In this document: positions 39,341 to 51,650 of the stretch, in pieces
Numbering within the stretch: the stretch's first letter is position 1
How the letters are laid out: every line of letters begins with the position of its first letter
Source: Leucoraja erinacea
Taxonomy: Eukaryota
Assembly (NCBI RefSeq): GCF_028641065.1
Contig: NW_026576708.1
Span: forward strand, 1-64,000
Direction: 5' to 3'
Length of the DNA: 64,000 bases
Notes under the pieces: generated by a model
The model's database searches: none
Told to the model about the DNA's origin: nothing
The model's input: only the letters and a program-made list of their open reading frames with translations
Position numbers and translations under genes: made by a program

Positions 39341-39426
39341 TGGTTACCAAGCTGCCGGAACTTGGTCTTTTCCATTCCCTGTAACTAGATCCTCAACTTC
39401 CTCATCACCAGGACCACAGTCTGTAC

Positions 39427-39506
39427 CAAAGATCCTAGAGGAGCAAGATAGACCACTCCTCCGAAATCCAATGGACTGGCGTGTAGTACGTGACATATAA
39501 TCTTTG
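39427..39506. mobile_element. 80-bp miniature hAT MITE, same family as 37027-37315
   Basis: CAAAGAT...ATCTTTG termini; perfect 8-bp TSD GTCTGTAC. Confidence 0.85.
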
Positions 39507-39675
39507 GTCTGTACGAATTGACAGCCCCCCCCCCCCCCGTGACCCCCCCCCCACCCGTCACCCCTGACCCCATATTCAACATCCCAGGGGTCAATCCCAG
39601 GTCAAAGGTCAGGGGGCAAGCACTTGGCCGCAAGGAGACACTGGAAGTAAGTAAACAAGACCAATATATGTCATT

Positions 39676-39681
39676 TTTATT
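39676..39681 (-). terminator. Poly(A) signal of gene Y
   Basis: AATAAA on minus, ~125 nt past the stop at 39806. Confidence 0.7.
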
Positions 39682-39805
39682 CCAATAAACACATTTTACA
39701 AGGTTGCCAGGCGGGGAGATGAGCCCAGCCCAGCCCAGCCCGGAGTTCATCCTAATATCTACATCGGCCGCCATCTTGGTGAGGTCAGGCCAAGATGGCC
39801 ACCGC

Positions 39806-42800
39806 TCAGTGGCCTTCCCCGGGCCGTCCTCGCCGCCGTATACGCAGTAGCTCTCGCGCCGCCACCAGGGACACGTAGTAGAAGATGTCCCAGTATTCCG
39901 CGTCGTCCCAGGGCACTGACATCAAATCCGAGTCCGACAGGCCTTCCTCTTCCCTCAAGGATGCTGCCTGTTCCTCCTGATCTGCTTCCTGTTCCTCCTG
40001 ATCCGCTTCCTGTTCCTCCTGATCTGCTTCCTGCCCCGCTCGGCCCACATCGTGTTTCACTTGGCCTGCTTCATGTTTCTCCCGGCCCTCTTCCTGTTCC
40101 TCCTGGCCTGCTTCCTGTTCCTCCCAATCAGCTTCCTGGTCCTCCCCGCCTGCTTCCTGTTCCTCATGGCCGTCTTCTTCTTCCTCCTGATCCGCTTCCT
40201 CTTCCTCCCGGCCCACTTCCTCTTCCTCCCGGCTCTCTTCCTCTTCCTTCTGGCCCGCTTCCTGCCCTGCACTTCTCACTTCCTGCCCCTCACGTCCTAC
40301 TTCCTGCCCTTCACCATGTGCTTTCTGTTCCTCATGTCCTACTTCCTGTTCCTCCCAGCCCATTTCCTGTTCCTCATGTCCCACTTCCTGTTCCTCCTGG
40401 CCCACTTCCCGTTCCTCATGTCCCGCTTCCTGTTCCTCCCGGCCCGCTTCCTGGTCCTTGTGTCCCACTTCCTGTTCCTCCCGGCCCGCTTCCTTTTCCT
40501 CATGTCCAGCTTCCTGTTCCTCAAGTCCCACTTCCTGTACCTCCCGGCCCGCTTCCTTTTCCACCTGGGTCACTTCCTCTTTGATCGCTATGGCTTCCTC
40601 TTTGCCCATTTCTGCTTCCTCATCCTCCAGACCAGCTTTGTTTTCACTCTGGCCGACTTCCTTTGCCCTAACGCTCGTTTCTTCTTCCTCCCGGCCCACT
40701 TCCTCTTCCTCTGTTTCCGACATCCCCCCATCGTCCGGCTCTGCCCGACACTGCAGAATGTCCGTGTGGAGGGCCGTGGGTTGAGGGGGCATGGGGGTGA
40801 GGCTGGTCAACGAACCGGGCCACTGGGATCTCACCGCCATCTCCGAGCCCTGAAGCCTGTCTGCTAGGCCCGAATCCTCCAGTGTGGACACTGTTTGTAG
40901 GCCCTGAAGCCTAACTCCTGGGCCTGGCCCATGAAGCCTATCCTCTAGGCCTGAATCCTCCAGCGTAGGTACTGATTGTAGGCCCTGAAGCCTAATTCCT
41001 AGGCCTAGCCCCTGAAACCTGTCCACTATGCCTGGATTCTCAACCTTAGGCGCTACTTGCAGGCCCTGAAGCCTAATTCCTAGTCCTGGCCCATGAAGCA
41101 TGTCCACTATGTCTGGATCCTCCACCTTAGGCACTGCTTGTAGGCCTTTAAGCCTGACTCCTGGGCCTCGAGTCCTCGTCGCTGAGGTTGAGGCTGGGGC
41201 CTCCGCGCCGGTCACTGGGCCCTTGTCGGGCCCCACAGCCTGAGCCTCGGGCCCTGCAGGCGAGCGGGGAGGGGGTTCCGGCGGGGCTGGGGGTCCCCAC
41301 CCGCCTCGGTCTCTGCTGGGAGGCCGGGCCACCACCAGCAGGCTCCCGGGGACCATGTTCGGCCGGCTGCTGGGATCCTGGCCCGTGCTGGACTTTCTGC
41401 TGGGATCTGAGACTGCATTCCACAGGCTGCTGGAATCGGGGGATGTGTTTGACTTTCTACTGGGGTCCTGGTCTGCGTTTGACTGTCTGCTGGGATCCAG
41501 GACTACGTTCCACGGGCTGCTGGGATCCGGGGCAGCGTTTAATGGGCTGCTGGGATCTGTGGCTGCGTTCAGCGGGCTGCTGGGATCCGGGGCCGTGTTC
41601 CGAAGCCCCCGCAGGTCCAGCAGGGCGGTCCCTAGTGAGCTGGGACCCAGCAGGATACGGACCACCCGGCCCCCGTCCAGCGCGATGGTCAGATGGCTGC
41701 TGGGATCGGCGGCTGTGGTCAACATTCTGCTGGGGTCCAAGGCTGTATTCAATGGGCTGCTGGCATCCAGAGACACGCCAGGCTGGCTGCTGGGATCCGG
41801 GACTGTGTTAGACATTCTGCTGTGATCCGAGATTGCATTCCATGATCTGCTGGGATTTGGGACTATGTTCAATATTGTGCTGGGTTCCAATACTGCATTG
41901 AACGATTTGCTGCGATCCAAGACTGTATTCGACGGGCTGCTGGGATCCGGGACTGTGTTTGATGTTCTACTGGGATCTATGACTGTATTTGACGAGCTGC
42001 TGGAATCTGGGGCTGTGTTTAACTTGCTGCTGGGATCAGCGACTGCATCCAATGGGCTGCTGGGATCCAGGGCCACGACAGGCCGGCTGCTGGGATCAGG
42101 GATAGTGTTAAGTGTTCTGATGGGATCCAGGACAGCATTCAACATTCTGCTGGGATCTATGACTGTATTCGACGGGCTACTGGGATCCGGGACTGTGTTA
42201 AGCGATCTGCTGGAAACTAAGACAGCATTCAATGATCTGCTGGGATCCTGGATTGCTCCAGGCTGGTTGCTGGAATCTGGAACTATATTCAACGTTCTGC
42301 TGGGATCTGGGTCTGTGTTCAATGCCCTGCTGGGATCCAGGGTTGTGTTTGATGTTCTGCTGGGATCCATGACTGCATTTGACATTCTGCTGGGAGTCAG
42401 GGCTGCTCCGGGCTGGCTGCTGGGATCTATGACTGTGTTTGACGTTCTGCTGGGATCTATGACTGTATTTGATGGGCTACTGGGATCCGGCAGCATACTA
42501 GACCGGCTGCTGGGATCCGGGACAGTGTTCAATGTTATGCTGGGATCAGGAACTGTATTCAATGAACTGTTGGGATCCGGGGCCTCTCCAGCCCGGCTGC
42601 TGGGATCAGGGACTATATTCAACATTCTGCTGGTATCTGGGACTGCATTCAATGTTCTGCTGGGATCAACGGCTGTGTTAAACATTCTGCTGGGATCTGG
42701 GACTGTATTCCATGATCTGCTGGAATCCAGGATTGCTCCTGGCTGACTGCTAGGATCCGAGGCGGTGTTCAACATTCTGCTGGGATCCATGCCTGTGTCC

Positions 42801-45800
42801 AATGATTTGGGATCTGGGGCTGTGTTCAAACTGCTGCTGGGATCAGGGACGGTGTTCGATGGGCTGCTGGGATCTGGGGCTGTGTTAAATGTTGTGCTGG
42901 GATCCCTGGCTGCGTTGACAGGGCTGCTGGGATTCCTGGGAGGGAACGCCGCTTCCAATTCCCTGTTGGGATTGGTGGACGGGATGCTGGGATGCTGGGC
43001 AGGTCTGCGGGGATCGTCCAAGGGCACCACCACCCCAGGATCTACCAGGTTGCCCATGTCCCTGCTGGAGCTGGTACCGGCCCTGCTGGTATGGGCTGCA
43101 GGAGATGCCTCCTGGAGCTCCACCATGGTCCCTACATCCCTGCTGGTCTGGTCTGCCAACCACACCTCAAAATCCATCTCGGTTCCCACATCCCTGCTGG
43201 AGTTGGGACTCGCTCTGCTGGGATGGTGCGTGGGTGAGATCTCCTGAAGTTCCACCAGGATTCCCACATCTCTGCTGGTGCCGGGCCCAGCTCTGCTGGG
43301 ATGGTCTGCCTGCCACATCTCGAGATCCACCAGGGATCCCAGATCTGTGCTGGAGTCAGTGCTCGCTCTGCTGGGATTGCTCGAGGACGCATCCTCATCA
43401 AGGTCCAACATGGGCCCGAAGTCTCTGCTGGTGCTGGGGCCGTCTCTGGTGTGTCTGCTGAGGTATCCGGAGGCTGGGGTGACCTGGGACCCCACGTCCC
43501 TGCTGGTTTTGGGGCTGGTGTGTCTGCTGGGGTAGCCCGAGGCCAATGTCTCCTGAAGGTCCCACACCTGACCTCTGTTAGTCTTTGAGCTGGCGTGTCT
43601 GCTGGTCTGGCCCCAAAATAGTATCTCCTCATGACCCTGCAGGTCCTGTCCGCCCCTGCTGGTGTCGAGAGAATTTCTGCTGGGATGGTGGGTGGGCAGC
43701 CTGGCGATGGGCTCATCTCTGCTGGGTTGCCGCGGGAGACCCACCATCTCTCTGCTGGTGTTGGGGCCAAGGCTGCCGTGTCTGCTGGGATTTCCTGAGA
43801 CGGGGGTCGCATGGGGGTCTTCCCCGTCCCTGCTGGAATGGTCCAGGAGGGGCATCCCCTCTCTGCTGGTGTCAGGATCATCTCTGCTGGGAAATCCTGG
43901 GACCTGGGACTCCGTATCTCTGCCGGGGACGGGGCTGCTGTGTCTACTGGGATCTGCCAATGATGGGGTCACTGGGAGATCCAGCACATTAGTCCTGCTG
44001 GGATTGGTGCCGGTCTGTCTAATGGGGTTCCCCAGCGATGGCAGTCCCTGTAGGACCACCATCTCTCTGCTGGTCTGTCTGCTGGGATTCTCCAAAGCTG
44101 ATGTCCCCTCATAGTCCACCTTGACCCTGCTGGGATTGGGGCTGGTGTGTCTACTGGTTGATCCTGAGAAAGTCTCCTGGTCCAAGGCGTCCACGTCTCT
44201 ACTGGGATTTTCCAAGACTGATGTCTGCTCGAGGTCCACATTGACCCTGCTGGTGTGTCTGCTGGGGTGCCCCACGGCCGACACCACCTGGAGCTCCAGC
44301 GGATTAGCCCTGCTGGTGTCCAGGCTGGTTTTCGCCTTCCTGCTGGTGCCAGCACCTTTTCTACTGGGATGCCTCGTGGGAGGCATCTGCTGGGGCTCCA
44401 TCGACTCCCTGGTGGTGAGGCTGGTGTGTCTGCTGTGTTCGTGTCTCTGAGGCGTAGCTGCTGAGACGATGGCGTGGTCTGCAGTGATCGCGTCTCTGCT
44501 GGTGTCCAGGCTGGTGGGTCTGCTGGGATAGACCAGTGGTGAAGTCCCCTGGTGGCTCCCCACATCTCTGCTGGTGGTGGAGCTGCCTCTGCTGGGATTC
44601 TCCATGGTAGATGTCTCCTGGAGCTCCCCCACCTTTCCCCTGCTGGTGCTGAGGCTGGTGTGTCTACCGGGATATCCTGACATCTCATGGTCCTTGATGG
44701 TCCCGTCATCCCTGCTGGTGTTGGGGCTGTCTCTGCTGGAATCTTCCAAGAGTGATGTTGCCTGGTGGTCCACCAGTTTGTCCCTGCTGGTGTGTCTGCT
44801 GGGAAACCTCAGGGGTGAAGTCTCCTGCTGGTCCACATCTTCCCTGCTAGTGTGTCTGCTGGGATAGTTCAGGGGCGATGCGTGATGGTCCACCACATCT
44901 CTGCTGGGATGGTCCCACCAGTCCAACTCCTCCAAGCCTCCCCGCTCTCTGCTGGTCCCGGTGGTGTCCCTGCTGGGAGAGGCAGAGAGAGGGAGTTCTC
45001 TGCTGGTATTGGCAGAGATTAGGACCTCTCTGCTGGAATTGGAGGAGAGAGGGACCGCCCTGGTGGAATTGGCGGAGAGAAAAAGCTCTCTGCTGGGATT
45101 GGGGGAGAGAGGGAACGTCCAGCTGGGATTGGAGGAGAGAGCATACACCCTGCTGGGATTGGTGGAGAGAGGGATTGTCCAGCTGGGATTGGAGGAGAGA
45201 GGGGCCCTCCAGCTGGGATTGGGGGAGAGAGGGAGCTCCCAGCTGGGATTGTGGGAGAGAGGAAACTCTCTGCTGGGATTGGGGGAGAGAGTTACCTCTC
45301 TGCTGGGATTGGGGGAGAGAGTTATCTCTCTGCTGTTATTGCGGGAGAGAGAGAGCTCTCTGGTGGGATTGGAGGAGAGAGGGAGCTCTCTGCTGGTTTT
45401 GGGGGAGAGAGGGAGCTCTCTGCTGGTTTTGGGGGAGAGAGGGAGCTCTCTGCTGGGATTTGGGGCAAGAGCGACCTCTCTGCTGGGATTGGAGGAGAGA
45501 GGGAGGTCTCTGCTGGGATTGGAGGAGAGAGGGAGCTCTTTGACGGGAGGGATGGGCAAGGAGCGGAGGATTCCGGCCAGTAGCCCTGCAGCCAATGAGA
45601 AGGGGTTGTCCAACTCATTGGGGGGAGGGGAATCGAGGGGCGGAGGGCCCCCCAGCGTGGTGGCCATGATCTGGGCCAGTACAGCGGTGGGGGTGGGGCT
45701 GCCGAGGGCCGGGTCGATGGGGAACCGGGGCTCAGTGTCCTGGCGGTCGGGCTCGGGCAGGGAGTCCATTGTGTCATCCTCCCAGGGCCCGCCCGCCTGG

Positions 45801-46918
45801 CCAGACCTCCCCAAGATGGCCGCTGGATCCGACCTTTCAAAGATGGCTGCCGTGTCCGACTTCCCCAAGGTGGCCACTGCGTACGACCTCCCTAAGATGG
45901 CCCCAGGGTCGGGGCTTTCCAAGATGGCTACCGGGTTGGACCTTTCCAAGATGGCTGCCGGATCCGACCTCCCCAAGATGGCCCCCGTGTCAGACCTTTC
46001 CAAGGTGGTCACCACCGGGTCTGACCTTTGCGAGGTGGTTGCTGGGTCCGACCTTTCTGTGATGGCCGCAGGGTTTGCCCTCCCCAAGATGGCCGCCAGG
46101 TCCGGACTCTTCAAGATGGCCACTAGGTCTGGGCTTCCCATGATGGCCGCTAGGTCAGGAGTCTCCCAGGCTGGGACTGAATCTTGGCCTGGAGCCCACT
46201 TTGCCCGGGAGGCCGGCGGCTCTGGCAACGACAGCGGGACTGTGACTGGCTTGGGCCCAGGCCTGGCCGGGAGTGAGTTAGTGCTGGGCCGGTCCAGTGC
46301 GGCGATCGCCTCAGGCCTGTGCTGCCTGGATGCCCGCTTGTGGTGCTCCAAGATGGCGGCTGCCCCAGGACTGACCAAGATGGACGACCATCGGTAATCT
46401 TCCGCCATGGCTGACCGCTCAGGACTCGCCAAGATGGCCGACTGTGCGGGATCGTCCAAGATGGCCGGCCTCTCAGGACTCACCAAGATGGCCGACCGCA
46501 TGGGAGCGTCCAAGATGGCCGACCTCTCAGGACTCACCAAGATGGCCGACCGTCCCGGAGCGTCCAAGATAGCGGCTGCCTGGGGAGTCTCCGTGCTGAG
46601 GAAGGGCCGGCGGGGAGTGTCCGGGGTGAACTCCCCGCGGAGGGAAGGCGGGGCCGTCTCGCTGTCCTCGCTCTCGGAGAGCGTGCGGAGACTGGCGTCT
46701 GAGATCTCCTCCTCCCACAGATGTCTGGCCGGCCCCTCGCCCACCGGTTCGTGGCGCCGCAGCGCGAGGGCGAGGGTGGGAGAGAGGGAGACGGGGCCCG
46801 CCCGGCGTCTCCGTCTCTCTGGGGTCCTGGTGGGCTCCCGGTCCTGTCCCAGGCCCAGGGTGGACCCCGGCTCACTCTCCTCCTCCCCTCCCTCCAGGGT
46901 GGAGACTCCTGGTAACAC
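39806..46918 (-). CDS. Gene Y: unidentified giant single-exon repetitive protein (~2200-2370 aa, predicted disordered)
   Basis: 7.1 kb with no stop and no recognisable TE insertion. Repeat units of 21, 27, 30 and 75 nt are all multiples of 3. Acceptor before 46959, poly(A) signal downstream. First in-frame ATGs at 46501 and 46408 (gccATGg). Confidence 0.8.
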   Translation of the reverse strand: MLPGVSTLEGGEEESEPGSTLGLGQDREPTRTPERRRRRAGPVSLSPTLALALRRHEPVGEGPARHLWEEEISDASLRTLSESEDSETAPPSLRGEFTPDTPRRPFLSTETPQAAAILDAPGRSAILVSPERSAILDAPMRSAILVSPERPAILDDPAQSAILASPERSAMAEDYRWSSILVSPGAAAILEHHKRASRQHRPEAIAALDRPSTNSLPARPGPKPVTVPLSLPEPPASRAKWAPGQDSVPAWETPDLAAIMGSPDLVAILKSPDLAAILGRANPAAITERSDPATTSQRSDPVVTTLERSDTGAILGRSDPAAILERSNPVAILESPDPGAILGRSYAVATLGKSDTAAIFERSDPAAILGRSGQAGGPWEDDTMDSLPEPDRQDTEPRFPIDPALGSPTPTAVLAQIMATTLGGPPPLDSPPPNELDNPFSLAAGLLAGILRSLPIPPVKELPLSSNPSRDLPLSSNPSREVALAPNPSRELPLSPKTSRELPLSPKTSRELPLSSNPTRELSLSRNNSREITLSPNPSREVTLSPNPSREFPLSHNPSWELPLSPNPSWRAPLSSNPSWTIPLSTNPSRVYALSSNPSWTFPLSPNPSRELFLSANSTRAVPLSSNSSREVLISANTSRELPLSASPSRDTTGTSRERGGLEELDWWDHPSRDVVDHHASPLNYPSRHTSREDVDQQETSPLRFPSRHTSRDKLVDHQATSLLEDSSRDSPNTSRDDGTIKDHEMSGYPGRHTSLSTSRGKVGELQETSTMENPSRGSSTTSRDVGSHQGTSPLVYPSRPTSLDTSRDAITADHAIVSAATPQRHEHSRHTSLTTRESMEPQQMPPTRHPSRKGAGTSRKAKTSLDTSRANPLELQVVSAVGHPSRHTSRVNVDLEQTSVLENPSRDVDALDQETFSGSTSRHTSPNPSRVKVDYEGTSALENPSRQTSREMVVLQGLPSLGNPIRQTGTNPSRTNVLDLPVTPSLADPSRHSSPVPGRDTESQVPGFPSRDDPDTSREGMPLLDHSSRDGEDPHATPVSGNPSRHGSLGPNTSREMVGLPRQPSRDEPIARLPTHHPSRNSLDTSRGGQDLQGHEEILFWGQTSRHASSKTNRGQVWDLQETLASGYPSRHTSPKTSRDVGSQVTPASGYLSRHTRDGPSTSRDFGPMLDLDEDASSSNPSRASTDSSTDLGSLVDLEMWQADHPSRAGPGTSRDVGILVELQEISPTHHPSRASPNSSRDVGTEMDFEVWLADQTSRDVGTMVELQEASPAAHTSRAGTSSSRDMGNLVDPGVVVPLDDPRRPAQHPSIPSTNPNRELEAAFPPRNPSSPVNAARDPSTTFNTAPDPSSPSNTVPDPSSSLNTAPDPKSLDTGMDPSRMLNTASDPSSQPGAILDSSRSWNTVPDPSRMFNTAVDPSRTLNAVPDTSRMLNIVPDPSSRAGEAPDPNSSLNTVPDPSITLNTVPDPSSRSSMLPDPSSPSNTVIDPSRTSNTVIDPSSQPGAALTPSRMSNAVMDPSRTSNTTLDPSRALNTDPDPSRTLNIVPDSSNQPGAIQDPSRSLNAVLVSSRSLNTVPDPSSPSNTVIDPSRMLNAVLDPIRTLNTIPDPSSRPVVALDPSSPLDAVADPSSKLNTAPDSSSSSNTVIDPSRTSNTVPDPSSPSNTVLDRSKSFNAVLEPSTILNIVPNPSRSWNAISDHSRMSNTVPDPSSQPGVSLDASSPLNTALDPSRMLTTAADPSSHLTIALDGGRVVRILLGPSSLGTALLDLRGLRNTAPDPSSPLNAATDPSSPLNAAPDPSSPWNVVLDPSRQSNADQDPSRKSNTSPDSSSLWNAVSDPSRKSSTGQDPSSRPNMVPGSLLVVARPPSRDRGGWGPPAPPEPPPRSPAGPEAQAVGPDKGPVTGAEAPASTSATRTRGPGVRLKGLQAVPKVEDPDIVDMLHGPGLGIRLQGLQVAPKVENPGIVDRFQGLGLGIRLQGLQSVPTLEDSGLEDRLHGPGPGVRLQGLQTVSTLEDSGLADRLQGSEMAVRSQWPGSLTSLTPMPPQPTALHTDILQCRAEPDDGGMSETEEEEVGREEEETSVRAKEVGQSENKAGLEDEEAEMGKEEAIAIKEEVTQVEKEAGREVQEVGLEEQEAGHEEKEAGREEQEVGHKDQEAGREEQEAGHEEREVGQEEQEVGHEEQEMGWEEQEVGHEEQKAHGEGQEVGREGQEVRSAGQEAGQKEEEESREEEEVGREEEEADQEEEEDGHEEQEAGGEDQEADWEEQEAGQEEQEEGREKHEAGQVKHDVGRAGQEADQEEQEADQEEQEADQEEQAASLREEEGLSDSDLMSVPWDDAEYWDIFYYVSLVAARELLRIRRRGRPGEGH

Positions 46919-47151
46919 AGGGCCAGCCGAGGGCGGGACGGATCCTCGATGTAGCTACCCTGCAGGGGAAGAGGCAAACACAACAGTCAGTCGGCCGAGG
47001 AGTCAGGAAATAGAACAATGCAACATGGCTTAGACGGCAATGGAGACACATGGGTCAGGGGACAGCAGCAGAGATTGTGGACTGAAGGGCCTGTTCCTGT
47101 ACTGTATAAGTGTATAAAACTACGGGAGGTGTAGATGGAGCTACACGATAC

Positions 47152-48665: not shown

Positions 48666-48844
48666 CTGCAGGGCAATGAGAGGGGGGGGGGGGACATGGG
48701 GGTGTAACAGGAGGTGCAGGGGGGGGGGGGGGGATAGGGGGTGCAGGGTGGGGTAACAGGGGGGGATAGGGGGTGCAGGGTGAGGGGACGGGGGGGGGGG
48801 GGGGGGTGCAGGGTGAGGGGACGGACGGGGGGGGCACTACTTAC

Positions 48845-49230
48845 CGCCGCTCCCGGCCGCTGGGCGCGATGTTGCTGATTGTGATCCCTGGAGCGCGCGG
48901 CGGCCCCCGGGCTCTGTGACGTCGCCGCGGGCTGCCCCTGTTACGTCACAGGGAGGAGGGGGGAGCAGTCCCGGGGAACCCCCGCCAGAGCCGGCACTAC
49001 GCATGCCCCAGGCGTATGTGACATCACATGGGACAGTCCCGGGGAACCCCCGTCAAAGCCGGCATTGCGCATGCTCCAGCTGTCGGTGACGTAAACGGTT
49101 GGGGAACCCCATCCCACTCGCATTGCGCATGCCCCGGGCGGTGGTTAACATCACTTGCGCCGCGGCCGGGAGTCGGCGCATGCGTAGTGGGCGGACCGCC
49201 GCTCGGTCACCAGTTCGAATCCCAACCCCG
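48845..49230 (-). promoter_or_regulatory. CpG-island promoter and first non-coding exon of gene Y
   Basis: Strong donor G|GTAAGT at 48844; CRE-like TGACGT/TACGTCA; NRF1-like (G)CGCATGC several times; GGGGAACCCC unit repeated three times. Confidence 0.7.
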
Positions 49231-49340: not shown

Positions 49341-49346
49341 TTTATT
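49341..49346 (-). terminator. Poly(A) signal of gene X
   Basis: AATAAA on minus, ~220 nt after the stop at 49569. Confidence 0.65.
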
Positions 49347-49568: not shown

Positions 49569-51650
49569 TCAGTCGATGGGCTGCATGTTGAAGGGGTCAG
49601 GCGGTCGCCCGTGGCGGACTGAGGGTTCCCGCTCGCCGGGTGGACGGGTGGTGGAGGAGGTCGGGGTGGTTGACTGGGTACGGGGAGAGGGGGGCGGCAT
49701 GCTAACAAGGCCCGCATCGGAGCGCCTGAGGAAGGGCATTCCGGACTGGCCCAGGGGAAAGGGCTCTATCTCCACGGACGGAGGGGTGATCTCCGGCGAG
49801 CTGTTGGAGCCGGGCCCGCTGCTGATCGAACCCTCCTCCGGGAGCGGGGCCTCGTGTTGGCTCTGGCCATGGTTGCTGGGGGCCGGGTTCCTGTTGGGGT
49901 TGGGGCTGGTGACCACGGAGGCTTGGCTTTGAGTGGCGGGAGAGCTGGGAGCGGGGCTCCTGTAGGGGCTGGGGCCGGAGGGGGCCCTGTTGGGGTCCAG
50001 GCCGGGGCTTGCGTGCACAGAAGCTCGGCTTTGAGTGGCCGGGGAGTTGGGAGCGGTGCTCCTGTTGGGGTCCCGGCTGGAGGCCAGGGAGGCAGCACGG
50101 CTTTGAGTGGTCAAGCTGCCCCTGCTGGGGATGGAAGCCGAGCGGCCGATGGATTGGGGCCCGAGGCCCGGGACGGGGTTGTGGGGACGGGATGGAGGCG
50201 GAGCGGCTGCCCTGGGCCGGGACCAGGCCGGACGTCATGGTCGGGGGGGGGCTGGAGGCTGGATGAATGATGGGGGAGCCAGGTGGACGGGGGGAGTGGG
50301 CTGGGTGGGGGTCCAGGGTCTTGTCCCAGCTGCGGGTGGAGCCGAAGCTGGAGGGGGGGCCACTGCTGGAGGCGGGCCCCAAACTGGGGGTGAGGCTTGA
50401 GCGGGCATTGGGGTCAAGGTCGGGGTCAGCCATAGGCACGGGGTTTGCGCTGTGGGGGAGGGGGGGGGTCCTGTGGGGGGGGGGGTGGAAGTAGGGGTTG
50501 GGGCGGAGACGGAAGGGGCTGTCAACTGGCCCTCGGCCCCGGAATCCTGGGTCTTGGTCCAGTCGCACGCCTCTGCGTTGTAGGCGGACCCCCGGCCATA
50601 GTCAGGCTCCAGGGCTCGACTAGGCCCCATGCCCCTAGAAGGCCCCAGGCCGTAGTCAGGCTCCAGGTCTCGACTAGGCCCCAGGCCATAGTTAGGCCCC
50701 ATGCCCCGAGTGGGCCCCGGCCTGTAGTCGGGCCTCAGGCCGCAGTCAAGATCCTGGCCCTGGCTAGGCCCCAGGCTCCGACCGGGCCCCAGGCTGTAGT
50801 CAGGCTCCAGGCCCCGGCTAGGCCACATGCTGCCCGTAGGCCTCACGCTGTAGTCAGACCCCATCCTGTAGTCTGGCCCCACGTCCCGACAGGCCTCCAG
50901 GCCGTAGCTAGAACCCAGCCCGTAGCCGGGATCCCGATCATACCCACCCAAAGACCCGGTGCCTGCCCTGGCCCCTGTGCTGGGCCACGCCGATTGCCCG
51001 GGGCCCGACTCCAGGCCCTGGCTGCGGCCTGCCTTCCGGCCCTGGCGGCCGCAGGAAGGGCTGGTCGGGGGGTCGCTGGCCGGGCTGGGCGGGTAGTCGC
51101 GGAGGTTGGCGAGCTGGGGGCTGGGGGACTGGGGCTGGGCCGGGCAGTAGTCGTCGGGGCTGGAGAGGACCGACAGCTCAGCCTCCCAGATGGACTCTGC
51201 GGCCCGGTACATCTGACTGACGGCGGCGGCAGACGGGTGGCAGCTCGGGGCCCGGTCGGGGGTGGAGGGAGGCCGCTTCCCGGACGAGGAGGAGGAGCAG
51301 GAGGGGGGTGCAGGGGGGCTGTCCTGGAGCCAAGGACCCCCGGGGCCCGTCACCAGGCAGCGCAGCCTGAGGTTGCCGGCGGTTGGGGGGCTGTCGGAGC
51401 GCTGGTCCAGGAGGCAGTGGAGCTCCAGCTCGGCCGGGGCAGGCCCCGCTCCCGCCCCCGCCCCCGGCCCGCTCTTCCCCGAGGCCTGCGAGGCCCGGCT
51501 GCTGCAGGTGTCCGCTGCTGCCTCCTGCGGCCCGCTCTGCCCGTTCACCAGCTCCTCCGCCAAGCTCAGCAGCTCGTCCAACTCTGCCGCAGATGGGGCC
51601 GTCTCAGGGGCCGGCCCTGACTGCACCCGATCGACCGGTGTCCCTGCTTC
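49569..51650 (-). CDS. Gene X: unidentified Pro/Ser/Gly-rich protein, large terminal exon with two apparent frameshifts (~50480 and ~50185)
   Basis: cactag acceptor in frame with ORF 50235-51626. Three overlapping ORFs chain at G/C runs, and the RSASIPS repeat appears in two frames. No recognisable TE; poly(A) signal downstream. Confidence 0.7.

Follow-up and report, generated by a model that had tools for sequence, protein, structure and literature searches.

A 27-bp Ala-Ile-Leu coding repeat in a skate giant exon that resembles an array of YY1 sites, and is probably conserved as protein

Introduction

The clustered YY1 sites of the Peg3-DMR are tandem repeats with one YY1 core each; about ten or more of them lie within a few kb downstream of a transcription start (PMC4196374, PMC2665242). 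The sites are intronic, have the form GGCGCCATCTT with a C upstream of GCCAT, are bound by YY1, carry allele-specific methylation, and differ between species in number and spacing. A clustered YY1 site has been defined as at least three matches to cgCCATntt, with one mismatch allowed, per 500 bp and no more than 5 kb from the start (PMC2665242, excerpt). The mouse L1 Tf site, GTCGCCATCTTG, likewise carries C upstream of GCCAT (PMC11602158, excerpt), and the YY1-bound TISU element is reported to have AAGATGGC as a highly invariant core (PMC2518114, excerpt).

Transcription factor motifs also lie within coding sequence, as in exonic enhancers and dual-use codons, where the encoded protein region is probably unstructured (bioRxiv 10.1101/2021.09.06.459186; PMC4745165). 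At the level of RNA, the Dscam docking site and the stems of the Nmnat terminal exon provide examples of one sequence that is complementary to several upstream repeats and is located near a poly(A) signal (PMC2724269, excerpt).

Here, a locus with likenesses to each of these systems is described from a 64,000-nucleotide stretch of Leucoraja erinacea DNA (contig NW_026576708.1, positions 1 to 64,000; the window). Like the Peg3-DMR it contains tandem repeats with one YY1 core each, a few kb downstream of what is in this case only a predicted start. The skate arrays differ from those of Peg3 in that they are in a coding frame, have a fixed nine-codon period, and lack the upstream C in 13 of 14 sites; in contrast to the variable spacing at Peg3, the nine-codon period is a conserved trait of these Ala-Ile-Leu (AIL) arrays. 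Exonic enhancers are called from chromatin data, and the Dscam and Nmnat stems lie in introns and have support from conservation and mutagenesis, whereas the skate repeats are codons, their motif has been multiplied by tandem repetition, and they are known from sequence alone. In a literature search of incomplete coverage, no case of YY1 arrays in coding repeats, or of pairing between a coding repeat and a UTR, was found.

Results

On the plus strand of 45790-46580, AAGATGG occurs 15 times, AAGATGGC 14 times, CAAGATGGC 12 times, CAAGATGGCC nine times, and the full CAAGATGGCGGC once, at 46349. The first-pass annotation had reported about 15 copies of AAGATGG at a 27-bp period as a single array encoding Ala-Ile-Leu. 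The count, the period, the match to the YY1 motif and the coding frame are all correct, but the units form two clusters about 180 bp apart rather than one array (Table 1). Read from the minus strand, the core is GCC ATC TTG and encodes Ala-Ile-Leu. It had been called nearly invariant amid variable flanks, and this is borne out by the units: 0-3 of 22 deviate at each of unit positions 10-19, compared with 2-15 of 22 elsewhere. Of the 22 units, 20 retain the G that follows the Leu codon (unit position 19), despite variation in the residue it helps to encode. Clusters A and B are identical at 9 of 9 core bases, versus 10 of 18 flank bases.

Across the window, 19 copies of AAGATGGC were observed against 2.4 expected, and none of 100 shuffles contained as many. 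Since this excess arises through tandem duplication, the shuffle test proves only that the array is real. Three other copies of AAGATGGC outside the arrays lie in one element at 37.0-37.2 kb, a diverged copy of which is found near 39.4-39.5 kb.

Table 1. Features of the AIL locus, in window coordinates
Feature	Position	Strand	Description
GC-rich promoter-like stretch and GTAAGT donor	48844..49200	-	Predicted; donor at 48844
Two candidate acceptors	46955..46961	-	Predicted
Giant open frame	39806..46954	-	2382 codons, stop to stop; both AIL clusters inside
AIL cluster A	46340..46582	-	9 units of 27 bp, ERS-AIL-VSP type; 6 intact AAGATGGC on the plus strand
Sole full CAAGATGGCGGC site of the arrays	46349..46360	+	From the motif count
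AIL cluster B	45803..46156	-	13 units of 27 bp, DPA-AIL-ERS type; 8 intact AAGATGGC on the plus strand
Control arrays in the exon	41365..45539	-	30-bp and longer repeats coding (D/N/H)-P-S-(R/S) around a fixed ATCCCAGCAG
Second hairpin arm	39790..39803	-	In frame past the stop: A-V-A-I-L-A-stop
3' UTR arm	39767..39799	+	Inverted copy, 33 nt at 82%, of cluster B's last unit plus flank (45791-45823)
AATAAA	39676..39681	-	Likely poly(A) signal, predicted, about 125 nt beyond the stop

The giant open frame is rich in Ser, Pro and Glu, and is probably one terminal exon of a disordered repeat protein of that composition. The gene seems to consist of a GC-rich putative transcript start 2.3-3.1 kb upstream of the arrays, the donor at 48844, an acceptor at 46960 or 46955, the single giant terminal exon, and AATAAA. 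Of the two candidate acceptor AGs, the one at 46961-46960 brings a TAG into the long frame, whereas the one at 46956-46955 opens the frame. In-frame ATGs first occur at 46501 and 46408, and three units of cluster A are upstream of the first ATG. A 503-codon plus-strand frame of KMAA repeats across the array was set aside because the homology sits in the minus frame. A promoter is unlikely in the CpG-rich DNA at about 38.5-39.3 kb, which apparently contains a reverse-transcriptase fragment, presumably of a LINE, recognised by eye from its motif. Elsewhere in the window, PARP regulatory and catalytic exons, which we take to be PARP2-like, are found on the plus strand at 9.6-17.4 kb, and minus-strand exons at 19-31 kb presumably encode a Lifeguard/TMBIM-like membrane protein.

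Pfam contained no family for the 2382-codon frame or for the frames upstream of it, and Rfam none within 36-53 kb. The repeat region of the frame had no match among 8000 candidates, an Atlas search gave no usable match, and no relative was found in metagenome contigs. An AlphaFold prediction was uninformative (pLDDT 37).

The sole homolog returned by protein searches with the frame is P0001, the hypothetical protein scyTo_0022047 of the catshark Scyliorhinus torazame (1478 aa, partial), an identifier for which no paper turned up in the literature. It matches the C-terminal 64 residues of the frame at 65% identity (E 1.7e-11); four weaker protein matches to the frame align at scattered, repeated stretches. 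The catshark protein has ten AIL units at a nine-residue period (I in 10/10, L in 9/10, A in 7/10; the first unit carries Met). It also shares with the frame, in identical order, a DNPFSxAA helix-like block, RDVGTMV, HTDIL and a C-terminal WDDAEYW..FYYVSLVAARELL block. It differs in having a single ten-unit array instead of two clusters, and its unit flanks are unlike those of cluster A or cluster B, with every flank residue different. Because the same nine-residue AIL period occurs between different flanks, the repeat is old and probably translated. The 2382-codon frame, long, open and with a homolog in a distant species as expected of a tandem-repeat giant exon, appears, judged from sequence, to be a real gene. 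About 5 in 100 of the reads of one RNA run yielded none from the locus, too small a sample to bear on expression.

As YY1 sites, the arrays are dense but incomplete. They contain 14 cgCCATntt sites, 13 of them with the allowed mismatch, at up to 8 per 500 bp, and are within 5 kb of a start solely if the start predicted at 48.8-49.2 kb is used. The base 5' of the intact GCCATCTT is G in ten cases, A in three and C in one (n=14), so that 13 of 14 sites lack the upstream C that would complete the consensus; since the extended motif fails, the arrays are not classed as a Peg3-type cluster. Among the preceding Ala codons, 7 of 9 are other than GCC, which would complete the site at no cost to the protein. 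The YY1 site of human L1 is also of the G form and is bound by YY1, and binding of YY1 to the arrays in vitro is therefore plausible.

Translated in this frame, the YY1 9-mer can only give A-I-L. Conservation of the protein is therefore by itself no guide to whether selection acts on protein or on DNA, and only synonymous sites can decide on constraint at the DNA level. Within the arrays, synonymous changes affect 2 of 71 core cells, 3 of 48 cells in non-CpG flank columns and 14 of 40 cells in CpG columns. When CpG was called by column, eight variants of the core-versus-flank test gave P values of 0.13 to 1.0. When it was called pair by pair, a nearest-neighbour count gave 3 core changes against 13.4 expected (P=0.0008). 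The latter count is given less weight, since sites whose CpG has already been lost in both units are treated in it as ordinary, and decayed CpGs are probably included in its P value in this way. All of these within-array tests have low power, and the units they compare are not independent. Among the changes in CpG columns, those expected from deamination (C>T or G>A) make up 20 of 28 in cluster B and 1 of 3 in cluster A (two columns); the decay of CpG in cluster B is an indirect hint of germ-line methylation. There is no TTG>CTG change among 17 Leu codons. The chance of drawing the triple GCC ATC TTG for A-I-L from the frame's own codon usage is 0.04, which is not small given the number of motifs that could be matched.

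The other arrays of the exon, coding for P-S-R or P-S-S, provide a control. Their ATCCCAGCAG 10-mer is present in 47 exact copies, and Pro is encoded by CCC in 63 of 64 units. Synonymous changes in core and flank number 0/62 versus 9/92, and 5/123 versus 28/125, with pair-based P values from 0.007 to 0.13. This core is not a YY1 site and is similarly fixed; a fixed core is therefore a habit of the exon and not specific to YY1. The P-S-R arrays show some synonymous constraint beyond protein selection, and their fixed core hints at some nucleotide-level process. A CTCF-like reading of their core was rejected, as a scan with what we take to be the CTCF consensus gave 29 matches versus 29.9 expected. 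Triplets of AAGATGGC at a 27-bp period were also found in at least 117 metagenome stretches, which are mostly coding repeats, with an xDG reading in 52 of 117. The printed translations of these 117 loci, compared as translations and not as alignments, are unlike the flanks seen here.

Comparison with three organisms, designated C, D and E, was based on listed differences at 40 of 125 places (31/32 for C, in which 46483-46522 is uncovered, 24/36 for D and 16/91 for E). In organism E, one contig spans both clusters, and the number of units is unchanged at 5-9% divergence. In the single run covering 45560-47029, the exonic indels of E (net -33 and +39 bp) all keep the frame, and the sole 1-bp indel is intronic. 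The dN/dS ratio in the comparison with organism C is 0.63 (19 non-synonymous to 11 synonymous changes), not significantly below 1 (P=0.15) and no more than suggestive of protein constraint. Among the 39 listed places inside the frame, the cores have undergone no synonymous and two non-synonymous changes, one of which abolishes a site. Synonymous conservation of the core across species, a check put forward with the first-pass annotation, is thus seen among the listed places, but with only 1.6 synonymous core changes expected against organism C the comparison is underpowered (P=0.19). This loss, a Leu>Met change at 46141, took place in the lineage of the window itself, while C, D and E retain the core. 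The cluster B segment is less diverged in organism E (26/492 versus 79/928, P=0.03), which fits constraint at either the DNA or the protein level.

Past the stop, at 39768-39800, an inverted pair of the motif had been described as encoding nothing. The pair is present (39767-39800), but one arm runs on in frame, between two stops, and the other resembles a whole array unit and not merely the 9-mer. The latter, the 3' UTR arm, includes a full CAAGATGGCGGC on the minus strand. Its pairing with the last unit ranks first among 47 inverted repeats in 39600-47100 (33 nt, 82%). Beyond the 9-mer, 10 of 12 bases match, which is reached by 21 of 23,804 control windows; the chance of such a match is about 0.4% over five non-array sites, the window length having been chosen after the match was seen. 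With the same post hoc choice of length, the arm shows the complementarity beyond chance that long-range RNA docking calls for. Since the arm is an 82% inverted copy of an array unit, and was probably derived from the array, the pair does not count as separate evidence that YY1 sites are under selection.

The local UTR hairpin has a predicted energy of -26.3 kcal/mol (z -2.6), which was matched in 3 of 200 shuffles. In duplex predictions, the UTR arm reaches -42.3 kcal/mol with the last unit versus -28.6 with its local arm. Its duplexes with 20 of the 22 units are at -25 or lower; the background has a mean of -13.4 and a best of -26.6 among 400.

Discussion

We consider it rather probable that the AIL array is a conserved protein repeat, the codons of which spell the YY1 core by accident. 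The exon would encode a long disordered protein with a short hydrophobic A-I-L motif every nine residues, most likely forming a row of weak multivalent contacts for a partner or for self-association. A founder unit may have used GCC ATC TTG by chance, the reverse complement of which is the YY1 core, and tandem duplication would then have multiplied it. Selection on A-I-L would fix most of the nine bases of the core. Its few synonymous bases are CpG-free and would be slow to change, whereas the CpG-rich flanks would decay fast. YY1 may bind the naked DNA of the array, yet this would not be the reason for which the array has been retained.

Several observations support conservation as protein. 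The catshark homolog has nine-residue AIL units in unrelated flanks with its other blocks collinear, the exonic indels of organism E are frame-keeping, and synonymous changes are concentrated in CpG columns and not in the non-CpG flank. Most preceding Ala codons are not the site-completing GCC, and the Leu>Met change of the window's own lineage, paralleled by Met in the first catshark unit, destroyed a core. That the core is accidental is further supported by the frequency of 27-bp AAGATGGC triplets in metagenome contigs. The A>T and A>P variants in the catshark are still compatible with a kept CCATC. Against selection on protein alone stand the lack of TTG>CTG among the Leu codons, the identity of the core between clusters with diverged flanks, the pair-level count and the retained G after Leu. 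Moreover, dN/dS is not significant, the synonymous constraint in the P-S-R arrays is not explained by protein selection, and the fold prediction is uninformative.

The first-pass annotation had proposed that the exon is dual-coded as a chromatin or enhancer element. In this case, same-strand YY1 sites 2-3 kb downstream of a putative promoter would act as in the Peg3 intron and set transcription or methylation of the gene or its neighbours, with A-I-L as a tolerated translation. The density of cgCCATntt sites, the invariance of the same core in TISU, the lack of synonymous core changes among the listed cross-species places, the lower divergence of cluster B in E, the one significant within-array count, and the core shared by clusters A and B are all in its favour. 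The synonymous contrast, however, vanishes without CpG columns and survives only in the pair-level count, and the few changes expected against organism C give the cross-species result little force. Both listed core changes are non-synonymous, CpG decay in cluster B suggests germ-line methylation, and the non-YY1 10-mer of the same exon is equally fixed. The completing base of the Peg3 and mouse L1 sites, as given in the excerpts of those sources, is present in just one site, the UTR pair looks array-derived, and the catshark explains AIL as protein. Dual coding is therefore not supported by these tests, and we regard it as unlikely; as they stand, the data speak more for a repeat kept as protein than for a concealed regulatory element.

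An element acting in RNA is similarly doubtful. Here, the UTR arm would be a docking site able to pair with any coding unit 6-7 kb upstream as a competitor of its local hairpin, and pairing would draw together the two ends of the 7.3-kb terminal exon, at the 3' splice site and the poly(A) site, or control translation. In a weaker form, the fixed 10-mers would be splicing-enhancer words of the giant exon. The top rank of the UTR/unit pair, its additional matched bases (with the post hoc window length), and the predicted energies argue for this, and it would account for the retained G at unit position 19. Precedents exist in the long-range stems that control the Nmnat terminal exon and in Dscam docking (PMC2724269, excerpt), and long exons are described as requiring SRSF3 (PMC11446547, excerpt). 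However, an old inverted duplication devoid of function would yield an equal likeness, the UTR arm is predicted to be occupied by its local hairpin, changes that wobble pairing would tolerate (e.g., ATC>ATT) show no excess over others (0 seen), and the exon structure is itself a prediction. The core might also be under no selection at any level, with intact units that share the 10-mer being preferentially copied or converted during array turnover and A-I-L incidental. Preferential copying or conversion around a shared core has been proposed for minisatellite cores, and two unrelated repeat types of the exon each keep a fixed 10-mer, including its synonymous bases. Against this, the unchanged unit number in the diverged organism E implies slow turnover, and AIL and its nine-residue period persist in the catshark although every flank residue differs; we consider such neutral homogenisation very improbable.

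The boldest alternative to a conserved protein repeat is that a nucleic-acid element, either a YY1 array or RNA selectors closing a 6-kb loop with the UTR copy, has dictated the protein repeat since the split from the catshark, a view to which we would give perhaps a minor share of credence. Ala-Ile-Leu would then be mere translation, and the other fixed 10-mer of the exon a second such code, which is doubtful to the same degree. Were this true, the locus would be a rare case of a protein repeat maintained over deep time by a regulatory DNA or RNA code instead of by the function of the protein. If the array is instead kept for its protein, the result is a modest one, a giant-exon repeat protein of cartilaginous fishes that is without a name, and it would illustrate that codons, tandem duplication and CpG decay can together mimic a conserved transcription-factor array.

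Start of the long frame

The long frame (39806-46954, minus strand) remains open for about 150 codons before its first ATG (46502-46954, minus strand), and this stretch is free of indels in the relative compared, organism E. On visual inspection it contains CTG codons that lie in frame and are embedded in ACC-CTG-G. Either a non-AUG start or a coding exon further upstream is needed. At 46876-46961 (minus strand), use of the first splice acceptor leads to a TAG within the long frame; a second AG, five bases further, opens it. A candidate GTGAGC donor follows 46876 and, with the first acceptor, would delimit an 84-nt exon without ATG that, judging from the sequence, could be spliced to the downstream membrane-protein gene. 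The CGCATGC and TGACGT words of the promoter-like stretch are presumably NRF1-like and CRE-like, respectively.

Features in and around the long frame
Feature	Position	Strand	Remarks
Upstream frame	49569-51650	-	YxxAxxIWEAEL in common with catshark P0001
Promoter-like GC-rich stretch	48850-49200		CGCATGC words, TGACGT words
DNPFSxAAxLxAxxLR and WDDAEYW..FYYVSLVAARELL blocks	about 45530-45700, 39810-39950	-	Conserved with catshark
Multi-period repeats, common 10-mer ATCCCAGCAG	41365-45539	-	47 exact copies
Glu-rich 21-bp repeat	39962-40568	-	CAGGAAGTG x4, arising from codons
3' UTR arm, inverted copy of entire coding unit	39767-39799 vs 45791-45823		82%; unit 6 kb upstream
Small dispersed element, two diverged copies	37000-37200, 39380-39520		AAGATGGC x3 in 37000-37200 copy

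Upstream frame and conserved blocks

The upstream frame matches the catshark protein P0001 at YxxAxxIWEAEL (10/18, E 0.017), a motif similar to HLWEEEI of the long frame. It has a stop at 50235, after which the same frame continues to 49569, and an AATAAA of its own at 49346. It is possibly an alternative last exon or a tandem paralog. The two blocks conserved with catshark look like binding motifs; we take them to resemble NPF motifs, AKAP-type helices and tryptophan-acidic motifs.

Coding repeats and YY1-like words

In the multi-period repeats the shared 10-mer is kept also in places where its flanks are completely diverged, and proline is encoded by CCC in 63 of 64 units. Constraint on synonymous sites here appears to equal or exceed that of the YY1-like core (GCC ATC TTG). 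The Glu-rich repeat, with words we assume to be ETS-like, is a further case of a coding repeat creating a motif look-alike. A metagenome repeat reading KMAAAAILS was also observed (L024:737-798), where a single 27-bp unit apparently carries the YY1-like word in forward as well as reverse orientation. Within the mRNA, the complementarity of the 3' UTR arm to its coding unit makes long-range pairing possible.
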